Shown in pieces: positions 5,599 through 16,992 of a stretch of 64,000 nucleotides of DNA; position 1 is the stretch's first letter; each line of letters starts with the position of its first letter. The notes beneath the pieces are model-generated. The model saw only the letters and a program-made list of their open reading frames with translations. It was not told where the DNA came from and did not search any database. The DNA comes from Candidatus Amunia macphersoniae (GTDB lineage Bacteria; Chloroflexota; Dormibacteria; Aeolococcales; Aeolococcaceae). The stretch covers positions 65,483 through 129,482 of the forward strand of contig JAEKNN010000005.1 in NCBI GenBank assembly GCA_016464795.1, given 5' to 3'. The translations under genes were made by a program, and so were the position numbers.

Positions 5599-7827
5599 TC
5601 AGCCGAGGCTGACCATGGAGTCGAAGATGGCGTCGCCGTTGCTGTGATCACCGTTCCACTGGTCGCTGGGTGCGAAGACCACGCCGATCACCACGGCGCC
5701 GTCGGCGGTCACTCCAGAGCCGATGCGAAGGTCGCCGTTGTTGTAGCTGTAGTACGCCTCGTTGGCGCCTGACAGGCCAAGGAAGTAGGGCGCCGTCTGC
5801 TCCTGCGTGAATTGTGGTGACACCCCGCCGGGGAGGAATCCGGTGAGGTTGAAGAACTGGTCGCGGAACGCCTTGGCCTCAGTGGCCTTGTCGGTGCCGG
5901 CGGCGACGCTCGGGTTCTGGAAGCGCAGCACGTAGACGCCGGAGGTGTGGTCCGAGCTGACCAGGCCGCCGGAGAATCCCTGCAACACGTTGGTGGTGTC
6001 CACCTTCCACTCCGGAGGCCGGCAGACTGAGGCACCGACATCAGCGAGCTGGGCCGCGCTCAGGGTGGGCAGGGTGGCATCTGTCCGGGCCGCCCCCGCG
6101 AGATGACCGTTGACGTACACCTCGACCTTATAGCTGCCGGGCTGCAGGCATTGCTGAGCCACCTGCAGATAGCGGGTGATGTAGTAGTAGCCGTTGACAC
6201 CGCCGGACGAGTTGGCCACCGGAGTCGAGTTGCCGCTGACTGGTTCGAGCACTGCCCAACCGAGCTTGGCGGGCCCCTGGTAGTACCACTGCGTGGAGAT
6301 CTCGTCCTTGGTGGGGTCGTAGCCAGACAGTTTTGCCGTCCACTGCAGCTCCCCGCCGAACACCTGGATGGCGGTGTTGGCTAGTCGCACGGTGGCTTGG
6401 GAAGAAGGCATCGTGGGATTGTCGACACCGCCGATGATCAGCTCCTTCATCGCCGAGACCTGCGCTGCGAGGTCTGGTCGATGTGATGCCAGCAGGTCGA
6501 GCGGGGTCAACGCCCCACCTGCGTATCCCTCTTCGACGAAAGTATTGTTGCGCGGCGTCTTCTTGTCGACGTCCGTGTAGAGAGTGTGCGCAACCGCCTG
6601 CTGGTAGGCATCACGTGCGGCACTGAGGTCACCCGCGCCCAGGTGGGCGATCCCCTCGTTGTAGTAGAGGAGAGGATCAGCGCTGTCCAGCTTCAGAGCA
6701 TCGGCGAGGTAGCCGAGCGAGGTCGAGTAATCAACCGGGCGGTTGTCGGCGATGGCCAGCAGCAGGCGGTTGGCGGCGAGGTTGTTGAGCAATTGCTTGT
6801 CGCGATCACCAAGGCTGTACGCCATCTGCAGGTCGTCGCCCTGCGCCTGCAGGGCCTGCGCCGAGCTCACGCTGACGATGAGGTCGCTGCGCTGTGGTGA
6901 GCCGAGCAGGAAGCGCACCAGCGATCGGTGGAGGTATGCGTTGGCGAAGGTGGGACGCAGCGCGATCGCGCTGCTGAACGCGTCGTCGGCTGCGCGTAGA
7001 CCGCTGTCCCCGGGCTTCGAGTAGAAGGTGTTCATGGCCGCGACGCCATCGGCATATGCGTCCGCGGCAGCGTCGGGTGCCGCCACCGGGGTTCCGAACT
7101 GCAGCGCGACAGTCCACACCCCGCCCACGGCGACGAGCAGCAGCCCGAGCCCCACCAGCATCCGGCGCATCCGAGCCTGCAGGGTCAGCGACAGCCCGAA
7201 GAGGTAGATGGCCACGGCGAACAGGGTCAGCATCACTGACAGATAGCCGACCCTGGCCTGCCAGTCGGCCCGCAGCTGGTTGGAGGCGTCCTGCAAGGCG
7301 AAGAGGCGATCACTGGCGTGCTGCTTGGCGGTCAGCTCGAGGTTGGGGAACCTCGGGTCCTGCGCGGGCGCGCTGTTGCCGTCGGCCTTGAGGTCGGACA
7401 GCTGGCCGGTGAGCGCGGCGAGCTGGGTCCAGCGGGTCTCCTCGAGCTGGAGCAGGCCGGCCTGGGCGGAGCCCGCCGTGATGGTGGGCAGGAGGAACTG
7501 CTGGAAGGCGTTGCCTGCGCGTGCTCGCTGTTCGGCGCTGTACGCGAACGCCTCGATCTGGGTGCGCGCTGCATCGTTGGCCCGGACCAGCTCGCCCTGG
7601 CGCTGGATGCCGAGCAGCTGGGCCTCGCCGCCGGCGCGGTCGGCATTGTTGTCGGCAACGCTGTGCAGGTACTCGATGCAGGCCACACCGAGAGTGGACA
7701 CGACGATGAGAACCGCGAGCACCCTTGCGAATCTCTCGCGCATCTCGTGCGCCTCAGGGACCTCGATGCGCTCGGGCGGCTTGTACATGCCCACCCCTAG
7801 GCCCCCAGCTTGAGCACGACGAGCCAC
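5599..7827 (-). CDS. Large polytopic membrane protein with an N-terminal TM - coiled-coil - 2xTM module followed by a TPR-like region and a C-terminal extracytoplasmic domain (hypothetical)
   Basis: Hydrophobic helices VLAVLIVVSTLGVACIEYL, VGYLSVMLTLFAVAIYLFGLSL and MLVGLGLLLVAVGGVWTVALQF. Ala-rich helical repeats with TPR character (AYLHRSLVRFLLG, LYYNEGIAHLGAGDLSAARDAYQQA). The N-terminal module is paralogous to the downstream 291-aa ORF. Confidence 0.6.
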   Translation of the reverse strand: MARRAQAGGLGVGMYKPPERIEVPEAHEMRERFARVLAVLIVVSTLGVACIEYLHSVADNNADRAGGEAQLLGIQRQGELVRANDAARTQIEAFAYSAEQRARAGNAFQQFLLPTITAGSAQAGLLQLEETRWTQLAALTGQLSDLKADGNSAPAQDPRFPNLELTAKQHASDRLFALQDASNQLRADWQARVGYLSVMLTLFAVAIYLFGLSLTLQARMRRMLVGLGLLLVAVGGVWTVALQFGTPVAAPDAAADAYADGVAAMNTFYSKPGDSGLRAADDAFSSAIALRPTFANAYLHRSLVRFLLGSPQRSDLIVSVSSAQALQAQGDDLQMAYSLGDRDKQLLNNLAANRLLLAIADNRPVDYSTSLGYLADALKLDSADPLLYYNEGIAHLGAGDLSAARDAYQQAVAHTLYTDVDKKTPRNNTFVEEGYAGGALTPLDLLASHRPDLAAQVSAMKELIIGGVDNPTMPSSQATVRLANTAIQVFGGELQWTAKLSGYDPTKDEISTQWYYQGPAKLGWAVLEPVSGNSTPVANSSGGVNGYYYITRYLQVAQQCLQPGSYKVEVYVNGHLAGAARTDATLPTLSAAQLADVGASVCRPPEWKVDTTNVLQGFSGGLVSSDHTSGVYVLRFQNPSVAAGTDKATEAKAFRDQFFNLTGFLPGGVSPQFTQEQTAPYFLGLSGANEAYYSYNNGDLRIGSGVTADGAVVIGVVFAPSDQWNGDHSNGDAIFDSMVSLG

Positions 7828-8672
7828 AGCGCCACGCCGCTGACGGCAGCGACAGCGCCCGCCCCGGCGAACATCCGCCTGATCGTGGGGCGGGTGAACT
7901 GGGCGAGAGTGAGGAAGAGCAGCGCGGCGACGAAGAGGGTCACCAGCCCCACCAGGTTCACCGATTCGGTGTGCTTGGTGTCAGCCTGATCGCGGATCGC
8001 GTCAGGGCGCAGCTGTTGCAGGTCGGAGTTGTTGTTCTCGAGCGTCTGCAGCGCGGCTTTGGCGTCGTACTTGAGAGGGGCGGTGGCGTCGGTCGCGGAG
8101 GGCAGCGCGGCTTGGAAGAAACCCTGCCAGCTCCGCGCCAGGACGCGTTCGCTCTCGGCTTGGGCATGCAACAGGGCGGCGCTGGCGGGGTCGGATGACT
8201 GCAGCGCGGTGGCCTGGGCATCGAGTGTCTGGGCCGCCTTGATGTGCTCCTGGTAGGGCGCCAGGTAGCGCAGGTCCTCGTCGACAGTTGCCTGCAGGTC
8301 GGTGATGATCTGCTGCTGGCGAGAGGCATCCTGGATGCCCTGCTGGTCGAGCCGGCGGGCGTCCTGCTCGGTGAGGGTGGCGCTGAACGCGACCACGGCG
8401 CCGAGGATGGACACGACCGCGATGGCGATGGCCACCCAGGTGCGGAACCGATCCTCAGGCTCGCCGGCCTCCACCGTCGACTCGAGGTCGGCCATGGTCA
8501 TGGCGCCAGTCAACAGCGATGGTGTGGCGAGCGGCTCCTCGTCGCCGAGCTCGGACGGATGCTGATGCCGAGGGGAGAAAGGCGGAGGTGGCGGCGGGGG
8601 AGGAGGCGTCCACGCGTTGCTGTCGTCCGGCATGGCAACGGATCTTACGCACGCCCCGGCGGTTGCCTGCAA
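7797..8672 (-). CDS. Membrane protein, a paralog of the N-terminal module of the preceding gene (Pro-rich N-terminus, TM, coiled coil, two C-terminal TMs)
   Basis: PPPPPPPPPF run. TM helix WVAIAIAVVSILGAVVAF. Coiled-coil region with Q/A-rich heptads. C-terminal TMs LVGLVTLFVAALLFLTLAQF and AGAGAVAAVSGVALWLVVL. The segment RMFAGAGAV aligns with RRMLVGLGLL of the 742-aa protein. Confidence 0.55.
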   Translation of the reverse strand: MQATAGACVRSVAMPDDSNAWTPPPPPPPPPFSPRHQHPSELGDEEPLATPSLLTGAMTMADLESTVEAGEPEDRFRTWVAIAIAVVSILGAVVAFSATLTEQDARRLDQQGIQDASRQQQIITDLQATVDEDLRYLAPYQEHIKAAQTLDAQATALQSSDPASAALLHAQAESERVLARSWQGFFQAALPSATDATAPLKYDAKAALQTLENNNSDLQQLRPDAIRDQADTKHTESVNLVGLVTLFVAALLFLTLAQFTRPTIRRMFAGAGAVAAVSGVALWLVVLKLGA

Positions 8673-8840: not shown

Positions 8841-9965
8841 GTGACTTGTGACCATTGCGGTCGCCAGGTGCCGGACGCCGTCTTCTGCACGGCCTGCGGT
8901 GCCCACCAGGGAACCACCGGGCAGAGTGGGAACCCGCGACTGCGGCACACGCATTACGCCGCGCATCCCGGCGAGCACGTCGGCCAACCGTCGGTGTTCT
9001 CCACCATCTTCCCCCATCTCGGCCACGGCCGCATCCACGAGTTCCGCTATGCCTTCCTGGGCGCCTTGGCCGTGCTGATCCTGCTGGTGGGCACGGGGCT
9101 GGTGGTGGCGGCGCTGCTCGGCGCCATCTTCCTGGTGCCAATCCTCTACCTCGTGTACCTGTACGAGGCCCAGGTGTACCGGGATGAGCCGGCGACAGTG
9201 CTCGGCTTCACCATCGGCGGCGGCGTCATCCTCGGCCTGGTGGTCAGCATCGTTGCCGACAAGGTGCTCCAGGGCACTGGCAAGGAAACCACCGTCGGCC
9301 AGATCGTCGGCCTCACTGTGATCCTGCCGATCGTGCAGGTCATCGCCATGGCGCTCCCCGCAGTTCTCCTGCGCGGCCGCCCGGCCTTCCCGGAGACCAT
9401 CGATGGCTTCGCCTTCGGCGTTGCCTCGGGCCTCGGATTCAGTGTCGCCGAGGGTCTGGTGCGATTCTCGAACGTGTTCACCGACCAGGGGCTGCAGACG
9501 GACTCAGCGAACTGGATCGCCCCGCTCCTCAGCGTCGCCATCCTCATCCCGCTGCTCCATGGCAGCGCCGGCGGCGTGGTCGCCGCCAGCCTGTGGCGGC
9601 GAGACCGTTCCGGCAACGCGCGCTCCCTCGGACTCGCCGGAGTTGTGGTCGCTGTGGCGCTGAGCATCGCCTTCTACCTCGTCGGTGAGCTGCTCCAGAT
9701 CAACGGTGTTGCCGCCCTCGTGGTGCTGGCGTTCCAGGTGCTGCCCGTCGCAGCACTGCTCGTGTACGCCCGGTTCCTGATGCACCACGCTCTCCTGGAG
9801 GAGGCAGCCGACATGGGATTCCGTCCTGCGGTGTGTCCGCACTGCCATCGCCACATCGTGGCCGCCGGCTTCTGTCCCAGCTGTGGGGTGGCGATCAGCG
9901 CGGGGCCACGATCCCAGGCGGACCTTGGTGACCCCATGGCCGCCGGCGCCGCGGAGGTCCGCTAG
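8841..9965 (+). CDS. PrsW-family-like polytopic membrane protein with N-terminal and C-terminal zinc-ribbon domains (module A)
   Basis: GTG start at 8841 preceded by GGAGG. N-terminal CDHCGRQVPDAVFCTACG and C-terminal CPHCHRHIVAAGFCPSCG ribbons. The core aligns to B. subtilis PrsW blocks: YLYEAQVYRDEP versus YFYLKDQYDNEP, FGVASGLGF versus YGASVSLGF, LLHGS versus LLHGS. It contains six or more TM helices. Confidence 0.7.
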   Translation: MTCDHCGRQVPDAVFCTACGAHQGTTGQSGNPRLRHTHYAAHPGEHVGQPSVFSTIFPHLGHGRIHEFRYAFLGALAVLILLVGTGLVVAALLGAIFLVPILYLVYLYEAQVYRDEPATVLGFTIGGGVILGLVVSIVADKVLQGTGKETTVGQIVGLTVILPIVQVIAMALPAVLLRGRPAFPETIDGFAFGVASGLGFSVAEGLVRFSNVFTDQGLQTDSANWIAPLLSVAILIPLLHGSAGGVVAASLWRRDRSGNARSLGLAGVVVAVALSIAFYLVGELLQINGVAALVVLAFQVLPVAALLVYARFLMHHALLEEAADMGFRPAVCPHCHRHIVAAGFCPSCGVAISAGPRSQADLGDPMAAGAAEVR

Positions 9966-10949
9966 ATGCCCCTCGGGTGCACCCGCTGCGGCACCGTCAA
10001 CCCCGATGGCAACGCCTTCTGCCAGAACTGCGGCGCTTCCCTGGCGGCCGCGGCACCACCGGGTCCTGCGCAGCAGTCTCCTCCGGCGACGCCGCAGCAG
10101 CCGGCACCTGCGTGGGCGCCTGGCCCGGCAGCCGCCGCGCCAGCGGCCGTCGTCGTCCCGCCGACGTACTACGCGAATCCCGCGCAGAGCCAGTACTACG
10201 CACCCCCGCTGGCCGCTCCTGGCGGTACGGGCCAAGTCCACCGGCTCTCGCGCAATGCACTGTTCGCGATCATCGGCAGTGCCGTCCTGGTAATCGCCGG
10301 CGTGGGAGCCATCGTCGCTCTCGCCGGCAAGGGGCCCAAGCCAACCCCGTACAGCCCACCGCCGGTGGTCTCAGCGGCCCCAGTCACATCCGGCCCAGTG
10401 ACCCCAAGTCCAACCAGCTCGGGCGCACCCCGGCCGACTCCACCGCCGGGCGGCCAGACCGGCCAGGTGATCAACGTGGGCTTCGCCTCCTTCCCGGCGA
10501 TCAGCGGGTTCACCCAGCAGACTGCTCAGGGCAACGTGACGGAGCTCGACCCCAATGACAAGAGTGGCCAGCTGTTCGTCGCCATGCTCCCCGCGGGCGC
10601 GATCACCACCAATCAGCAGGTGAGCGACAGCCTGCTCGCAGGTGATGCCAAGTCGTCTCCGGACGCGGTGCGGTGCTCGCCCGACGCTCCGGGACCGACG
10701 CTCGCCGGAACCGGCGGGGCGCAGATCGCCACCGTGGTGGTGACCATCTGCGAGACGCTGACCCCCCAGAACGGCCAGGCATTCAAAGCCGTCGATGCGT
10801 ACGTGGCCGGCCTCGCCAAGGACTCCAGCGGCGCCCCGGTGCAGGTGCTGATCAACCCCTTCGCACCCGACTCGAGCTTCGCCAACTTCGTCAAGGAGAT
10901 CCCGCAGGGCTGGGCCAGCCAGGTCCAATTCAACGCCACGGCGCGCTGA
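9966..10949 (+). CDS. Single-pass membrane protein: N-terminal cytoplasmic zinc ribbon, Pro-rich linker, TM helix, extracytoplasmic domain of unknown function (module A partner)
   Basis: CTRCGTVNPDGNAFCQNCG zinc-ribbon. Pro/Ala/Gln-rich low-complexity linker. TM helix ALFAIIGSAVLVIAGVGAIVALA. Globular C-terminal region of about 200 aa. The ATG directly abuts the stop of the PrsW-like gene (TAGATG). Confidence 0.65.
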   Translation: MPLGCTRCGTVNPDGNAFCQNCGASLAAAAPPGPAQQSPPATPQQPAPAWAPGPAAAAPAAVVVPPTYYANPAQSQYYAPPLAAPGGTGQVHRLSRNALFAIIGSAVLVIAGVGAIVALAGKGPKPTPYSPPPVVSAAPVTSGPVTPSPTSSGAPRPTPPPGGQTGQVINVGFASFPAISGFTQQTAQGNVTELDPNDKSGQLFVAMLPAGAITTNQQVSDSLLAGDAKSSPDAVRCSPDAPGPTLAGTGGAQIATVVVTICETLTPQNGQAFKAVDAYVAGLAKDSSGAPVQVLINPFAPDSSFANFVKEIPQGWASQVQFNATAR

Positions 10950-10975
10950 GGCGCCGAGCCGGAATATTCACGCCA

Positions 10976-12670
10976 GTGCCACACCGCCCGCGCAAGCTCA
11001 CCGCCTGCTTCGTCGTCCTCACCGCAGCGCTCGCGGGCTGCGCCTCGGCCACGTCCACGAATGGTCCGTCGCCGCGCCCCGCGCGCGTCGCTGAGGACCC
11101 GAGCCGCCCGTCGCTTGCCGCCGCCATCCGTCTGGGCAGAGACCTGGGCCCGATCGCGGCCGACCAGACGCTCACCGTCAGCCTCGGACTGCAGGGTCGC
11201 GATCAGGCGGCCCTGGCGGCGCTGGTCGCCCGCGGCGGGCGGGTCACGCCTGCGCAGTACGCGCAACGTTTCGGGCCCGCCCCCACAGCGGTCGCGGCGG
11301 TGGTGGCGACGCTCTCCGCCGCCGGGCTGCACGAGCAATGGCAGGCTGGTCAGCCGGTGCTCTCCGTGTCGGGCCCGGCCGGTGCCATCGAACGCACCTT
11401 CTCCGTGGCGGTTCACAACCACATCGGTCCTGACGGCACCCGGTTCCACGCTCCCACCCATGCGCCGACGGTGCCGGCCTCGCTGGCTCCCGAGGTGACC
11501 TCGGTCGCGGGACTGCAGGATTACCCCACCCACCGCACTCAGGACCTGACCAACCCCAGCGGCTTCCGGCCGACCGACGCCGCCGACTTCTACGACGTCG
11601 CGCCGCTGCAGAAGGCCGGGCTCAACGGGACAGGCCAGACGATCTACCTGGTGGAGATCGACGAGTTCGGCGCTCCGGCCCTCCAGGCCTACGCGTCCAA
11701 GTTCAACCTGCCGCCGTTCGACGTCACAGTCAAGCGGGACCCCACCAGCTGGGGTGATCCTGGCGCCGAGGGCAACAGCTCCAGCGAGACCGATCTCGAC
11801 CTCGAGATCATCCATGGCATTGCCCCCATGGCCAAGCTGGTCGTGTATTACGCCAGCGGCAAGGGGGACAACGTCGACAAGGCGCTCCGAGCTCTCGTGC
11901 AGGATCACCCGGCGAGCATCGTGACCATCAGCCTGGGGCAGTGTGAGGCCAGCGTCGACCCAGCCGTCCCGCCGCAGGACGATGCCGCCACCACCGCGGC
12001 CGCCGCCAGCGGGACCACCATCTTCGTCTCCAGCGGGGACCGGGGAGCGTATGAGTGCATCCCCAACGGTGACAACAACACCGTGTCGCCGAACTACATC
12101 TCGGCGCTGCCCTCGGTGACCTCAGTGGGCGGCACCACGGTGTACATGAGCGCGACCGGCGGCTACGGCCGCGAGTCTGCCTGGGGAGAACCCGCCGAGC
12201 AGTGGGGCTCGGGCGGCGGCAACAGCAAATTCTTCAAGCTGCCCGCCTGGCAGACCGGTCCCGGTGTCAAGAACCAGTTCTCCGATGGCAGCCGCCAGCA
12301 GCCCGACGTGGCTGCCAACGCCGACAGCCTCAGCGGCTGGGACATCTTCGGCTCGCAGCCCGGCGCCGAGGGTACGGTGGGCGGTACCTCCGCGGCCGCG
12401 CCGTTCTGGGCGGCGCTCACCGCGCTCGTCGACCAGAACCTTGCTCAGCTGAAGCTGCCCTCGGTCGGATTCGCCAATCCCCCGCTCTATGCCTTCGCCC
12501 AGAACCCCTCCGGGCTCCCCGCCAACCCGTTCCATGACATCGTCACCGGCACCAACCTGTTGAACCCGGCGACGCCGGGCTGGGACTACGCAACGGGCCT
12601 GGGCAGCCCCGACGCGGGCGCGCTGGCAGACGACTTCGAGTGGTACGAGAAGAACGTGGCGCCGCATTGA
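10976..12670 (+). CDS. S53 (sedolisin/kumamolisin-like) serine-carboxyl peptidase lipoprotein with an N-terminal pro-domain
   Basis: GTG start. Signal peptide with lipobox LTAALAGCAS. Pro-kumamolisin activation-like N-terminal domain. Catalytic-domain motifs IYLVEIDEFG, SSGDRGAYEC and the Ser-nucleophile block GGTSAAAPFWAAL. Confidence 0.82.
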   Translation: MPHRPRKLTACFVVLTAALAGCASATSTNGPSPRPARVAEDPSRPSLAAAIRLGRDLGPIAADQTLTVSLGLQGRDQAALAALVARGGRVTPAQYAQRFGPAPTAVAAVVATLSAAGLHEQWQAGQPVLSVSGPAGAIERTFSVAVHNHIGPDGTRFHAPTHAPTVPASLAPEVTSVAGLQDYPTHRTQDLTNPSGFRPTDAADFYDVAPLQKAGLNGTGQTIYLVEIDEFGAPALQAYASKFNLPPFDVTVKRDPTSWGDPGAEGNSSSETDLDLEIIHGIAPMAKLVVYYASGKGDNVDKALRALVQDHPASIVTISLGQCEASVDPAVPPQDDAATTAAAASGTTIFVSSGDRGAYECIPNGDNNTVSPNYISALPSVTSVGGTTVYMSATGGYGRESAWGEPAEQWGSGGGNSKFFKLPAWQTGPGVKNQFSDGSRQQPDVAANADSLSGWDIFGSQPGAEGTVGGTSAAAPFWAALTALVDQNLAQLKLPSVGFANPPLYAFAQNPSGLPANPFHDIVTGTNLLNPATPGWDYATGLGSPDAGALADDFEWYEKNVAPH

Positions 12671-12683
12671 TGGCGGCAATGCA

Positions 12684-13847
12684 ATGACCCAGCAACAGCC
12701 GCCGCCGCCGAGCGCTGCCGTGACCCTGGAGTCATGCCATCACTGCGGTGAGCTGGTCCCCGTCGGTGCCTTCTGTGGGCATTGCGGTTCCAACCTCGTC
12801 GACACCAGTGGCGGTCGTTCCCGCACCCATGCATTCGCGGCCGCGCCCCACGAACAGGTGGCCAGACCCGTGGTGATCAGCACCCTGTTCCCGCACCTGA
12901 CACGGCGTCACGCGCAGAGCTTTCAGCTGGTCCTGGCAGCCGGCATCCTGCTGGTGGTGGCTCTGGCGGCGCTGCAGCTGGTCGCGCCCGCCACCATCGC
13001 CGCCGCCGTGGTGCTGCCGGTGCTCTACCTGCTCTACCTGTATGAGGTGGAGGTGTACCAGCACGAGCCCGTCCAGGTCCTGCTCCTCACCGTGGTCGCC
13101 GGTGCCGCGCTTGGCGTCGCCTTCACACTGGTCACCGGCACATTCACCAGCGCCAGCCTCAACGGCACCCAACAGGGCGTCCTGGTGTCCGCTGTGCTGA
13201 TCCCGGTCATCGCCCAGGTGCTGATGGTGGCCACACCCCTGCTGCTGCTCTCCCACGCCCACTTCGACGAGACGCTCGACGGCCTCACCTTTGGCGTGGC
13301 CACGGCGTTGGGCTTCACCATGGCAACCGTCATCGGCGGCAACTGGCACCTGCTGACCGCGCCGCTGGTGGGCGGAGCCTCCAGCGAGGATGTGCTCAGG
13401 ATCCTTCGCGAGGGCGTGCTGGTGGCGGTGGTCAACGCCAGCACCACGGGCCTGGTGACGGCGGCCCTGTGGCTGCGGGTGCGCCGGCGCTCCCGCCGGC
13501 GTTTCGTCAGCCCCTGGCGTGGTCTCCAGGCCTCGGTGGTGGTGGCTTTCGCCGTGCAGATCGGCCTGGGCCTGGTGTCGTACTACGGACGCAGCCTGCT
13601 CGCGGTGGTGGTCGCGTATGCCATCGTCGCTCCGCTGCTGCTGATCTGGCTGCGCGTGGTGCTCCATTTCGCGCTCCTCGAGGAGGGCGCCGAGCTGGAG
13701 ATCGGTGACGCCACCGCCTGCCCCGAGTGCCATCGCATGGTGCCCACCATGGTCTTCTGCCCCGCCTGCGGCGTCGCCCGCTCGGCCAGCGCGCGTCAGG
13801 CCCGGCCCGAGCTGCCGATGCCGGCAGCAGCGGAGGCTCCGGCCTGA
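12684..13847 (+). CDS. PrsW-family-like polytopic membrane protein with N- and C-terminal zinc ribbons (module B, paralog of 8841-9965)
   Basis: CHHCGELVPVGAFCGHCG N-terminal ribbon and CPECHRMVPTMVFCPACG C-terminal ribbon. Shared blocks with module A (LYLLYLYEVEVYQHEP, LSHAHFDETLDGLTFGVATALGF, LHFALLEEG). The HAHFDE block is identical to B. subtilis PrsW HAHFDE. Confidence 0.7.
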   Translation: MTQQQPPPPSAAVTLESCHHCGELVPVGAFCGHCGSNLVDTSGGRSRTHAFAAAPHEQVARPVVISTLFPHLTRRHAQSFQLVLAAGILLVVALAALQLVAPATIAAAVVLPVLYLLYLYEVEVYQHEPVQVLLLTVVAGAALGVAFTLVTGTFTSASLNGTQQGVLVSAVLIPVIAQVLMVATPLLLLSHAHFDETLDGLTFGVATALGFTMATVIGGNWHLLTAPLVGGASSEDVLRILREGVLVAVVNASTTGLVTAALWLRVRRRSRRRFVSPWRGLQASVVVAFAVQIGLGLVSYYGRSLLAVVVAYAIVAPLLLIWLRVVLHFALLEEGAELEIGDATACPECHRMVPTMVFCPACGVARSASARQARPELPMPAAAEAPA

Positions 13848-14641
13848 TGGTGCAGGCACCCGTCATCGGTTTCTGCGGCCGCTGCGGAGCGCCCTTCACC
13901 GCTGCCTCCGGCAGCTTCTGTGGCCGCTGCGGCAACCCCGTGGCAGCCGCGCCGCCGGTGGCCTCGGGCTACACCTACCCGGTGGCGCCTCCCGGCAGCG
14001 TCCCGGCGATGCAGCACAAGCTCTCGCGGCAAAGGCTGTGGATCTTCGGCGCCGGCGCGGTCATCGCCCTGGTGGTGATCATGACCGTGGTGGTGGTGGT
14101 GGTCCGGCCGCTGGGCACGACCTGCCACTTCTCGTGCTCCAGCCAGCATGGACCGCCGCTGGTGGGCAACTCGCTCTACAAGAACGACAAGTTCGGCTAT
14201 TCCGTCGAGTACCTGGCGGCCAGCACCAAGGTCGCCTCGAGCGATGCCAACGGCGTCGTTCTGAACGTCGGTCAGGGATCGCAGATCAGCTTCACGGGCA
14301 CCTCGGGCACCGATGTGGATGGTGCCCTGCAGTCGGCCTTCAAGGGCATCGACTCCAACACCTTCCAGGACCTCCAGCCGGTCGGGCCGGTGCGCGGCGC
14401 GGAGATCGGCAACGTGCCCGCCAAAGGGACTGCCTACAAGGGCAACTTCGTCCCGCCCAACGGGGGGGCGAGCGGGCCGGTTGGCGCCATCGTCATGGCC
14501 GCATCCTTCAACAACGTGACGGTGGTCACCGTGATGTTCAGCGGCTACTCGACCGACCAGGCCAACCAGCCGTATGGGCTGGCGGAGGGCTCGTCGCTCG
14601 ACTACCCGATCACGCTGACCCACTTCCCCGGGTCGCCATAG
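13847..14641 (+). CDS. Single-pass membrane protein with an N-terminal zinc ribbon, TM helix and extracytoplasmic domain (module B partner)
   Basis: The ATG overlaps the upstream stop (ATGA). FCGRCGAPFTAASGSFCGRCG ribbon. TM helix IFGAGAVIALVVIMTVVVVVV. C-terminal globular region of about 180 aa. Confidence 0.65.
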   Translation: MVQAPVIGFCGRCGAPFTAASGSFCGRCGNPVAAAPPVASGYTYPVAPPGSVPAMQHKLSRQRLWIFGAGAVIALVVIMTVVVVVVRPLGTTCHFSCSSQHGPPLVGNSLYKNDKFGYSVEYLAASTKVASSDANGVVLNVGQGSQISFTGTSGTDVDGALQSAFKGIDSNTFQDLQPVGPVRGAEIGNVPAKGTAYKGNFVPPNGGASGPVGAIVMAASFNNVTVVTVMFSGYSTDQANQPYGLAEGSSLDYPITLTHFPGSP

Positions 14642-14652
14642 TCCGAGGCCCT

Positions 14653-16992
14653 TCAGCGGCCAGTCCGGGTGCGCCGGCGGCGGCGCCGCGCTGCCACTGA
14701 GGCGACGCCGATCACCAACCCGCCGGCGCCCATGGCGCCCAGGGCTCCCATCTCCGCGAGAGCAGTCGGCGGCGTGGATTGCGGGACAGTGGTCTCGATG
14801 GCGCTGACGCAGCCCGGCGGCGGTGTGCCGATCACCACGTACGCCGCAGCCCCCAGGTTGCCCCCGGCGCGGCCGGCGTTGTTGGTCGCCGACACGGCGA
14901 TGACCGCGGTGTTGGCCGGAACCTGGGACAGGGTGAGCTTCTCGGCGGTGCCGGCAGGGGATGCGGGTGCCACCAGGGCGGGCTCCGGGAACCCGGGAGA
15001 GGATCCCTCCGCCGAACAGGCGTAGGTGCGCACCTCGAAGTTGACAGCGTTGCCGCAGGCACCGTGACCGGTGGGCGCGGTGAAGGAGAGCGACTCACCG
15101 CCGCCAGTGGGGGCGCCGCTGAGGTCGGTGATGGTGGACGGCCGGTCCGCGACGGTGCTGAGGTTGCCGGTGTTCCAGCCGTCGTGACGGAACTTCGGCG
15201 ACGAGGCCACGGCGCAGGCGTTGGCCGGTGTGTTCCAGACGAACAGTGATCCCGATCGGGTCAGCGACACCAGCTTCAGGTTGGGGTCGGTGCCCAGGGT
15301 GGTCACCAGGGGCACGGCGATGGTCCAGTCGCCGGTGTTTTTGGTGAAGCCGGGGAGCTCGGCGCCTGCCGGCGTGATCGCGCGCAGGTCCGAGGTCGCC
15401 GAACCCTCGATGAGCTCCTGCAGGCCGGTCCCGCCCGGACCGATGTCGGCTGCTGCCGGTCCCGCGAGGAACTGCAGGTCGTTGACGAAGTGGGGGTAGG
15501 CAGGGTGCATCTTGCCGGTACTGACGCTCCAGGCGGCCAGCTGGTTCTGGGCGTTGAGCTGGTGATCGTTGATGGCCACGTCGAGCAGCTTCTTGGTGCC
15601 ACTGGTGGCGGTGGTGTAGACGATGTCCCCAGACCCGGTGAGGTCGGCGAACGCACCCTCACCGAAGGCCGGGACATAGGGTGAATCGACGCTGTTGCCA
15701 CCGCTGTTGACAGTGGAGTCCAGGGAGCGCTGCTGCGACGACGACCCGTCAGCGCCCGCCCCGGTGCCGTAGCAGGAGCTGCCGTCCGACTGGAACACGT
15801 ATGCAGGACCGGCAGCTGACGAGACGCCCACCTTGAGCCCCGGCTGGTTGCTGACCGGGCAGCTGAAGGCCGCCAGCGAGGCGCCGGTGTCGATGCCGGT
15901 CCCCACCTCGGGCAGGACCGACATGTCGGCGATGCCCACCTTCACCGGCCAGTGTGGCGCGTAGGCATTGCTCGGCACGGCCGCGGGTGGCGCGGCCATG
16001 CACGTTGAGAGTCCGTGGCAGTAGCCATCGGAGTACACCGCGTACAGTCGGCTGTTGCCGGTGGGAACCAGACCTGTCGACTGGAGGACCTGGGCGAGCG
16101 GGAATGAGTCGGCGGTGGCGTTGAAGCCGCCGTCACGGGCCGAGGCGTACTCTTCGTTGCGGCCGACGAGGATCTCCTGATGCCCATCACCGAGCAGGTC
16201 GCCGACAGCAGCCGTGCTGACGATCTTGGTACCGATATCCGCGCCACTGTTGGCCACCAGTGTCACCCGGTGGGTCACCGGGTCGACCGACTGCACCTTC
16301 TCGGGGGATGCGAGCAACACCGGGAAGCCCGGGCGCTGCGCACCGTCGCCGTTCCAGGCGTAGAGGTGCCGGTCCAGCGACCCGTCGATGATCGACAGCT
16401 GTCCGTTCTTGTCGAGGTCGGCCAGGGTCGGCGAGGCGAGGAAGCCGAACTGCACGCGGTTGTCGGTGTTGCGGTTGAAGAACGGCGGGGTTCCCTGGGC
16501 GCTGTAGTCGGGGTTGGCGCGCACCGGGAAGCCGGGGCGAAGACTGCCGTCCGCCTCGAAGGCGTAGATGTAGCCTGACATGTCGGCAGCGACCACCTCG
16601 AGGTGACCGGTGCGGTCGAGGTCGCCGACGGCGACGCTGGCGATGATCGCCGAGTGCACCCGCCCCGCCGCCGCGGCCACCTCAGGGTCCCTGAAGGCGG
16701 CCTCACCGGTGTGGTAGGCAAGCGGGCTCACCGACACCGGCCACCCCGGCAGTTCGGCGCCGTCGCTCCTGAGCGCGTGGACCTGGCCGTCGCTGGTGCC
16801 GAAGACTATCTCGTTCTGGTTGTTGCCGAGCAGGTCTGCCGCCGCCGGAGAGCTGGCCCCGTCGGCGCCGAGCTGCAGAGGAAAGTTGGCCGCCGACGTG
16901 CCCACACCCGCGACTGAGTCGTCGTGGTGCGACTGCAGGGTCTTGCGATCCTCGCCGGTCAGATGGTGGTCATCTGTCACCTGGACGCGCAC
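14653..16992 (-). CDS. FG-GAP/beta-propeller repeat surface-protein segment with a C-terminal membrane anchor. It is in the same reading frame as the upstream S8 peptidase, separated only by one TAG codon, so it is probably the C-terminal part of a split or read-through subtilase gene
   Basis: Repeated FG-GAP-like units (VAVGDLDRTGHLEVV, DLDKNGQLSIIDGS, AVGDLLGDGHQEILVG, ADLTGSGDIVY). No N-terminal signal peptide. C-terminal anchor [23 protein letters not shown]. 19020 and 16992 are congruent mod 3, and the 23 codons between the TAG and the first start codon contain no stop. Confidence 0.6.
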   Translation of the reverse strand: MRVQVTDDHHLTGEDRKTLQSHHDDSVAGVGTSAANFPLQLGADGASSPAAADLLGNNQNEIVFGTSDGQVHALRSDGAELPGWPVSVSPLAYHTGEAAFRDPEVAAAAGRVHSAIIASVAVGDLDRTGHLEVVAADMSGYIYAFEADGSLRPGFPVRANPDYSAQGTPPFFNRNTDNRVQFGFLASPTLADLDKNGQLSIIDGSLDRHLYAWNGDGAQRPGFPVLLASPEKVQSVDPVTHRVTLVANSGADIGTKIVSTAAVGDLLGDGHQEILVGRNEEYASARDGGFNATADSFPLAQVLQSTGLVPTGNSRLYAVYSDGYCHGLSTCMAAPPAAVPSNAYAPHWPVKVGIADMSVLPEVGTGIDTGASLAAFSCPVSNQPGLKVGVSSAAGPAYVFQSDGSSCYGTGAGADGSSSQQRSLDSTVNSGGNSVDSPYVPAFGEGAFADLTGSGDIVYTTATSGTKKLLDVAINDHQLNAQNQLAAWSVSTGKMHPAYPHFVNDLQFLAGPAAADIGPGGTGLQELIEGSATSDLRAITPAGAELPGFTKNTGDWTIAVPLVTTLGTDPNLKLVSLTRSGSLFVWNTPANACAVASSPKFRHDGWNTGNLSTVADRPSTITDLSGAPTGGGESLSFTAPTGHGACGNAVNFEVRTYACSAEGSSPGFPEPALVAPASPAGTAEKLTLSQVPANTAVIAVSATNNAGRAGGNLGAAAYVVIGTPPPGCVSAIETTVPQSTPPTALAEMGALGAMGAGGLVIGVASVAARRRRRRTRTGR

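Follow-up and report, generated by a model that had tools for sequence, protein, structure and literature searches.

A five-gene cluster spans positions 8841–14641 of a 64,000-nucleotide stretch (the window) of contig JAEKNN010000005.1 from Candidatus Amunia macphersoniae, a member of the Dormibacteria. An initial annotation, made from the letters alone, had described it as two tandem, translationally coupled modules, each a polytopic PrsW-like membrane protein followed by a single-pass partner, with a peptidase between them. All five genes lie where that annotation put them; they are co-directional and nearly gapless, in the order A1–B1–S53–A2–B2. A1 (8841..9965, +) encodes 374 residues with eight transmembrane (TM) helices, a zinc ribbon at both ends and a seven-TM core of the PrsW/APH-1 fold that lacks the PrsW catalytic residues. 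B1 (9966..10949, +; 327 residues) is its type-II bitopic partner. A2 (12684..13847, +; 387 residues) is a more degenerate paralog of A1, and B2 (13847..14641, +; 264 residues) is the bitopic partner of A2. Between the pairs lies the gene for a kumamolisin-like S53 sedolisin lipoprotein with its own pro-domain (10976..12670, +), the companion of the A2–B2 module. A1 and B1 abut in TAGATG, as first read, but A2 and B2 meet in TGATG, overlapping by 1 nt at 13847, and not in the ATGA initially reported. The remaining gaps are 26 nt between B1 and S53 and 13 nt between S53 and A2. The cluster carries two paralogous copies of a conserved module of Dormibacterota/Chloroflexota-type bacteria.

Family, fold and catalytic positions of the A proteins

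A1 and A2 share 36% identity over 364 residues (E 2e-43) and are paralogs, as proposed. Both exceed the gathering cutoff of the Pfam PrsW model PF13367 (40.4 bits for A1 and 33.0 bits for A2, against 23.5), which bears out the family assignment; many more distant fused relatives of A score below that cutoff. Against the NCBIfam PrsW equivalog NF033739, whose cutoff is 225 bits, A2 reaches 30.6 bits and A1 gives no match, and a search of A1 against PDB sequences returned nothing relevant. In the A1 predicted structure, the nearest known folds are APH-1 and TMEM147, which share the seven-TM fold. The A1 membrane domain (residues 62–324; 9024..9812, +) comprises an N-terminal helix, TM0, and a PrsW-like core that shares its DEP loop, FDE..DG loop and GLGFxxxE motif with PrsW. 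Relative to PrsW itself, A has an extra TM helix at the N-terminus and a zinc ribbon on either flank.

Two samples of relatives inform the analysis of conservation. Pattern scanning, with each GTDB species represented by one genome, detected an A relative in 196 genomes, and the best 80 loci, essentially all from Dormibacterota, were examined. An exhaustive profile search with the A alignment returned 1,719 representative clusters within E <= 1e-3, of which 251 also pass E <= 1e-30; representatives were clustered at 50% identity, and the best 150 were examined.

The ribbons inferred at both A termini are well supported by homologues. In A1 the N-terminal ribbon (C3, C6, C16, C19; 8847..8897, +) and the C-terminal ribbon (C332, C335, C345, C348; 9834..9884, +) contribute eight cysteines that are invariant or nearly so among 121 homologues and 98–99% conserved in distant family members. 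The A2 ribbons lie at 12735-12785 and 13719-13769 (+). Besides the cysteines, distant A members conserve Pro and Gly at structural positions, along with polar residues located mainly at the cytoplasmic face (E45, the DEP loop, D188-G189, R311, H315, E321). Mean top-residue frequencies are 0.84 in the N-terminal ribbon, 0.85 in the motif at residues 35–61, 0.93 in the DEP loop and 0.85 in the post-TM7 helix.

Residues 35–61 of A1 (nt 8943-9023), a cytoplasmic segment of the form R35..YAAxPxEHVxxPxxxSTLFPHL, are among the most conserved in A and are kept in distant relatives. In the A1 model, the predicted confidence (pLDDT) is below 50 for residues 20–48 and approximately 72 for residues 51–60. 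The segment behaves like a binding motif that would fold on a partner.

A1 is 100% identical to a public protein from a Candidatus Dormibacteraeota metagenome-assembled genome annotated 'PrsW family intramembrane metalloprotease'. The public gene model (P0001, 365 aa) starts nine codons downstream of GTG 8841 and loses C3 and C6, which are present in 115/121 homologues; GGAGGA lies 6 nt upstream of that GTG.

If A were an active PrsW-type site-1 protease, B would be its substrate and the ribbons would serve recognition or carry a released signal. PrsW is defined by the motifs E75E76xxK79, F110xxxE114, H138 and H175xxxD/N, and in B. subtilis the E75A/E76A double mutant and the H175A mutant are inactive (PMC12943098). 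For comparison we used a reference B. subtilis PrsW sequence, which scores 320 bits against NF033739; by local hhalign, only A1 residues 91–206 align to it robustly. The initial annotation had matched the A core to PrsW sequence blocks, and although the family match holds, it overlooked the absence of the catalytic EExxK block. Its further equation of A1 'LLHGS' with PrsW motif 4 is doubtful: the equivalence appears in global MAFFT/hhalign alignments and is unsupported by topology, by the colinear Pfam match and by local hhalign. We rejected it, and the histidines were therefore merely counted.

At the motif 1 position, EExxK is replaced by Q166-V-I-A-M170 in A1 and by A-Q-V-L-M in A2, with no acidic residue in that helix. 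Motif 2 is kept in A1 as F200xxxE204 (E in 118/121 homologues), reads FxxxT in A2, is also missing from most A2-type orthologues and is unconserved in distant relatives. TM5–7, the region that in PrsW contains H138 and the essential H175, contains one histidine in A1 (H240) and none in A2. H240 is Q in the majority subclade, and although its motif counterpart is uncertain, A1 cannot hold both PrsW histidines. Orthologous subclades show alternative states, Q-L-x-x-M with H240 in that of the window and Q-E-x-x-K with Q240 in the majority. Among the 150 family representatives, the motif 1 positions carry EE in 2, a single E in 45 and neither in 103, and positions 166, 167, 170, 204 and 240 are all unconserved. 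A single A gene among the 80 loci (L046, 9995-11149) has a canonical motif 1, EEALK. Position 240 is nevertheless Q in this gene, which may represent either an intermediate or a reversion.

These data bear on the protease reading from both sides. Membership of PF13367 above threshold, the FxxxE of A1-type proteins, the one Glu and the Lys retained in the majority subclade, and the EEALK of L046 all speak for it. Against it, the complete motif set occurs in no A member, motif 1 contains no Glu in either window paralog, the equivalents of H138 and H175 are wholly (A2) or partly (A1) missing, the catalytic positions are unconserved across the family and the equivalog score falls far short of its cutoff. 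As far as sequence can indicate, such conservation is what a pseudoenzyme would show, with activity through other residues still conceivable.

The B partners and their coupling to A

B1 and B2 each carry an N-terminal CxxC-x10-11-CxxC ribbon and a single TM helix. B1 consists of the ribbon (C5-C22; nt 9978-10031, +), a Pro-rich linker, an HR juxtamembrane motif, the TM helix (residues 98–121; nt 10257-10328, +), a Pro-rich stalk and an ectodomain (nt 10461-10946, +). B2 has its ribbon at C10-C28 (nt 13874-13930, +), a HKLSR juxtamembrane motif in which KLS is conserved, a TM helix at approximately residues 64–86 (nt 14036-14104, +) and an ectodomain at nt 14126-14638 (+). The TM helix presents a conserved small-residue face, G-x-G-x-x-x-A in B1, whose G, G and A positions are 90% conserved. 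The cytoplasmic part of B amounts to a PF13240 ribbon of about 23 residues and a Pro-rich linker. Both partners of each pair do carry cytoplasmic ribbons, as had been noted, and these are conserved.

The B1 ectodomain is an alpha-beta-alpha sandwich of the Mog1/PsbP/LpqN/DcrB-like fold that superposes on Mog1, PsbP and LpqN; this fold is a common protein-binding module. The two ectodomains had been called non-homologous, and at the BLAST level B1 and B2 do share only the N-terminal ribbon and the basic juxtamembrane motif. Profile comparison corrects this picture: the ectodomains are distant homologues (profile-profile E 5e-4 over 129 columns), one region of a fused protein (P0293) matches both the B1 and the B2 ectodomain profile (4e-12 and 9e-17) and so bridges them, and an iterated profile of fusion ectodomains matches the window B2 at 5.8e-19. 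For B1, a single-sequence search gave just seven matches, owing to low-complexity linkers, and the ectodomain profile was used instead. In Pfam and NCBIfam, B1 and B2 match zinc-ribbon models only, with no hit to an ectodomain family (PsbP, DUF1795, LpqN), and the B2 profile had no match in PDB or Pfam.

Directly after its TM helix, B2 carries an outer cysteine pair, C93 and C97 (nt 14123-14137). A C-x3-7-C pair is conserved in B2-type proteins and in the fusions P0293, P0298, P0300, P0304, P0307, P0313 and P0325; B1-type proteins lack it and have the Pro-rich stalk in its place. The two cysteines might form a disulfide or bind a metal.

The pairing of A with B is translationally coupled, as the initial annotation had it, and is conserved. 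For 77 of the 89 A genes at the 80 loci, the start of a gene for a zinc-ribbon, single-TM protein lies between -23 and +23 nt from the A stop codon; most of the other 12 are truncated by a contig end or escaped the regular expression. The junctions include 46 that abut exactly, 7 ATGA overlaps and 6 TGATG overlaps. The pair also duplicates as a unit, with two pairs each in the window and at two other loci, L016 and L047, where they stand in tandem. The inferred duplication of modules is thereby borne out.

Natural fusions tie the two components together. Of the best 150 representatives, 39 extend at least 180 residues beyond the C-terminal ribbon of A; all 39 extensions contain a TM helix, none contains a second ribbon, and 34 of their ectodomains belong to the B ectodomain family by iterated profile. 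These proteins are natural A–B fusions. Because abutment prevails in most pairs and fusions occur, the pairing is not due to chance. Because B has a ribbon only when it is a separate chain, the fusions suggest that this ribbon is a docking element.

The coupling gives the protease reading a type-II bitopic, substrate-like partner held tightly beside A. The identity of B and of its neighbors points the other way. Searches of Pfam and NCBIfam found no anti-sigma domain in B1 or B2. A scan of proteins encoded around the cluster, over about 8.8 kb on its upstream and 12 kb on its downstream side, turned up neither a sigma factor nor a regulator, and no sigma factor was seen among the conserved neighbors of related loci. 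Stable fusions, too, suggest a one-to-one structural partnership. With catalytic motifs and anti-sigma domain missing and no sigma factor gene found in that scan, we rejected an anti-sigma model based on regulated intramembrane proteolysis, and the PrsW/RsiW-type reading of the initial annotation is not supported for this locus. Its other suggestion, that A and B form a sensor/transducer pair, may still apply.

The sedolisin and the surrounding genes

The S53 protein contains the Pro-kumamolisin (PF09286) and Peptidase_S8 (PF00082) Pfam domains behind a LAGC lipobox. It matches kumamolisin (1t1e) with E 1.6e-41 and has the E..D, GD and GGTS motifs (SSETDLDLE, SSGDRG, GGTSAAAP), so that by its sequence it is predicted to be an ordinary, intact kumamolisin-like enzyme.

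The S53 gene had been described as sitting between the two modules. That position is right, but the gene belongs to module 2, with which it forms a conserved S53–A2–B2 unit. It is present in 11 of the 12 loci with a B2-type gene, the twelfth being cut by a contig end, and in 0 of the 68 others, and it adjoins every complete B2-type module, on either side. In the nearest relatives, A1–B1 converges on B2–A2–S53 or on S53–B2–A2. Since S53, A2 and B2 stay together while their order and orientation to A1–B1 change, they behave as one unit. One fused protein of 1041 residues (P0313), represented by three near-identical cluster members on four contigs, carries A, a TM helix, a B-like ectodomain and an S53 catalytic domain lacking the pro-domain in a single chain. 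This fusion physically ties A, B and S53 to one another.

Flanking genes are housekeeping ones: GlmU-like, Prs, CNNM/CorC, RecO, glycyl-tRNA synthetase-like (named from its translation only), MprF-like and BrkB. The annotation had placed a surface S8 subtilase converging on the cluster; the gene that converges directly on B2 encodes an FG-GAP protein (14653-16992, -), and the S8 gene lies behind it, likewise on the strand opposite to the cluster. Both were considered as parts of the system and rejected, as they occur in 0/80 related loci. The FG-GAP repeat protein (779 aa) ends in a LAxTG-like motif (LAEMG), a TM helix and an Arg-rich tail, a C-terminus that resembles a sortase-type sorting signal.

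Directly upstream of the cluster, on the opposite strand, lie genes for a 742-aa membrane protein with weak, sub-threshold TPR matches (5599-7827, -) and a 291-aa membrane protein with a Pro-rich N-terminus (7797-8672, -), which overlap by 31 nt and are not kept beside A–B elsewhere. The recO, TPR, 291-aa, FG-GAP, S8 and glyS genes of the window were found in 0 of the 80 related loci. A promoter and terminator scan found nothing and is uninformative at 69% GC; G+C across the window is 66–72%.

In the majority subclade, other neighbors recur. In 51 of the 80 loci (for example L013, 9429-9968), A is immediately preceded by a co-directional msrA-like gene with a GGCFWG motif, and in 27 (for example L014, 7739-10018) B is immediately followed by a gene for an MMPL-like transporter. 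Neither is in this window. We rejected them as functional partners here and keep them as a lead only. In mycobacteria, LpqN, one of the structural neighbors of the B ectodomain, partners with MmpL.

Function of the modules

We favor, at roughly even odds (about 0.5), a reading in which the cluster encodes two copies of a complex between a PrsW-fold pseudoprotease and a bitopic partner, a stable scaffold and not a protease with its substrate. A and B would be produced together and form a stable nine-helix complex. A would act as a non-catalytic scaffold that holds the B TM helix, in the manner of APH-1 with nicastrin, TMEM147 with nicalin, or SpbR with bitopic enzymes, and we infer that A and B meet through this helix and their ribbons; coupling, fusions and the small-residue face of the B helix are indirect evidence for stable binding of that helix. 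The zinc ribbons and conserved cytoplasmic motifs would form an inner platform for docking and output, and the PsbP-like domain of B would bind a partner outside the cell. For module 2 this partner would most likely be the co-encoded lipoprotein sedolisin, tethered or regulated at the membrane surface.

Known systems resemble this arrangement in parts. B. subtilis PrsW (YpdC; MEROPS M82, PF13367) and RsiW share with it the Pfam family, the seven-TM core with its DEP, FDE..DG and GLGFxxxE elements, and a type-II bitopic partner with a zinc-binding cytoplasmic part. In contrast to PrsW, A lacks EExxK and has an incomplete or absent histidine pair, and where RsiW has a ZAS anti-sigma domain, B has a simple CxxC..CxxC ribbon with no sigma gene nearby. 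APH-1 of gamma-secretase and TMEM147 of the multipass translocon, the structural neighbors of A, each pack a single-pass partner helix (PMC7505659). They are non-catalytic scaffolds, like A in fold and in the loss of catalytic residues, but they are eukaryotic, have no zinc ribbons, and their partners nicastrin and nicalin have aminopeptidase-like ectodomains, whereas that of B is PsbP-like.

A second parallel comes from degenerate CAAX (Abi/CPBP) homologues. SpdC, LnsB and SpbR act non-catalytically, SpbR by binding and inhibiting the signal peptidase SpsB (PMC12260438), and Abx1, the partner of CovS, functions independently of its catalytic residues (PMC3578759). Like A, these are polytopic proteins with a degenerate protease fold that regulate membrane-anchored partners by binding, and the direct control of an extracytoplasmic peptidase by SpbR parallels the S53 link. 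They belong to another superfamily branch, however, and lack both zinc ribbons and a dedicated co-translated partner; fusions of them are not known, and their partner enzymes are encoded elsewhere. Compared with the envelope proteins of Mog1/PsbP-like fold (LpqN, Mtc28, Apa, DcrB, cyanobacterial PsbP), B lacks sequence-level membership of their families, is anchored by its zinc-ribbon/TM segment and not by a lipid, and is always coupled to A. The S53 protein resembles kumamolisin and other sedolisins (MEROPS S53) in catalytic motifs and pro-domain, and differs in being a lipoprotein conserved beside A2–B2 and, in one lineage, fused without its pro-domain behind a B-type ectodomain.

Several points weigh against the pseudoprotease reading. 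To our knowledge, no PrsW structure has been solved, so any PrsW fold, active or not, would have APH-1 and TMEM147 as its closest PDB neighbors. Loss of the canonical residues is no proof of lost activity, as the catalytic residues may have migrated; conserved polar residues do remain in A (E109, E116, D188, E204, H315, E321), and the C-terminal half of A has no confident alignment to B. subtilis PrsW. Module 1 has no associated protease, so the S53 link is not a general function of the pairs. Finally, fusion of a PrsW domain to C-terminal cargo is also predicted by a model of autoprocessing (PMC3482391).

The protease–substrate reading nonetheless appears unlikely to us. PrsW proteins with Zn ribbons have been proposed as signalling peptidases (PMC3482391), and this precedent joins the family membership and coupling in its favor; the lost motifs, the absence of anti-sigma and sigma components and the fusions outweigh them in our assessment.

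Quite improbable, in our estimate, is the autoprocessing model itself, by which A would extrude and then release the ectodomain or the sedolisin, as proposed for PrsW–toxin fusions. The fusions described above do begin with a PrsW-like domain and end in extracytoplasmic cargo, the polarity of PrsW-dependent toxin processing (PMC3482391). Set against this, the catalytic motifs have degenerated; no special export route is needed, because the cargo brings a TM helix of its own and S53 a lipoprotein signal peptide; and the cargo is a conserved PsbP-like domain and not a polymorphic toxin.

It is also possible, with a similarly low probability, that the function resides at the cytoplasmic face, where the ribbons and His/Glu/Asp motifs would form a metal-binding, catalytic or sensor site modulated by B. 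Conservation peaks in cytoplasmic elements, likewise in distant relatives, and the motifs P43-E45, P58-H59, the DEP loop, the LDG loop and R311-H315-LLEE would suit such a site; the conserved N-terminal motif is predicted to be disordered (pLDDT 40–45), as expected if it folds on a partner. However, this idea draws purely on conservation patterns, and Pfam, NCBIfam and PDB searches found no homology to a known cytoplasmic enzyme or sensor domain. It is compatible with the scaffold model and does not exclude it.

That the adjacency of A, B and S53 is coincidental or mere inherited gene order is extremely improbable: the loci come from a single phylum with some synteny by descent, and msrA and MMPL neighbors are also conserved in a subclade, but stops and starts abut or overlap in most pairs, the pair is kept while surrounding genes differ completely, S53 is retained beside A2–B2 on either side despite rearrangements, and the natural A–B and A–B–S53 fusions effectively refute it.

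Beyond the scaffold itself, we tentatively envisage a transmembrane device. A pseudoprotease would dock a PsbP-type receptor via the ribbons and control the surface sedolisin in module 2, or another envelope partner in module 1, and it may relay the state of the envelope to the cytoplasmic ribbon platform. By analogy, such a device might do in bacteria what APH-1 with nicastrin and TMEM147 with nicalin do in eukaryotes, a comparison that we offer as speculative.

The initial annotation recognized no named system here, and that judgement stands. PrsW domains joined to Zn ribbons were noted in general terms in 2012 by Zhang et al., who proposed a signalling role and assumed peptidase activity (PMC3482391). 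Degenerate motifs, an obligate bitopic partner, a PsbP-like ectodomain and a sedolisin association are not described there. Our literature search likewise found no description of degenerate motifs, an obligate co-translated or fused bitopic partner, the PsbP-like fold or the sedolisin link, and a search for PrsW pseudoproteases found none.

Because the catalytic residues are unconserved, the database labels 'PrsW family intramembrane metalloprotease' and 'RsiW-degrading proteinase' are probably wrong for this family (1,719 clusters, E <= 1e-3). If the scaffold reading is true, the theme of a degenerate intramembrane protease that holds a single-pass partner would reach the PrsW branch, beyond APH-1/TMEM147 and the staphylococcal CAAX homologues. 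The split and fused natural versions of one complex offer a clean system for studying how a scaffold binds a helix and what cytoplasmic ribbons contribute. For the Dormibacterota, an abundant uncultured soil phylum, the finding points to a specific regulated surface sedolisin.

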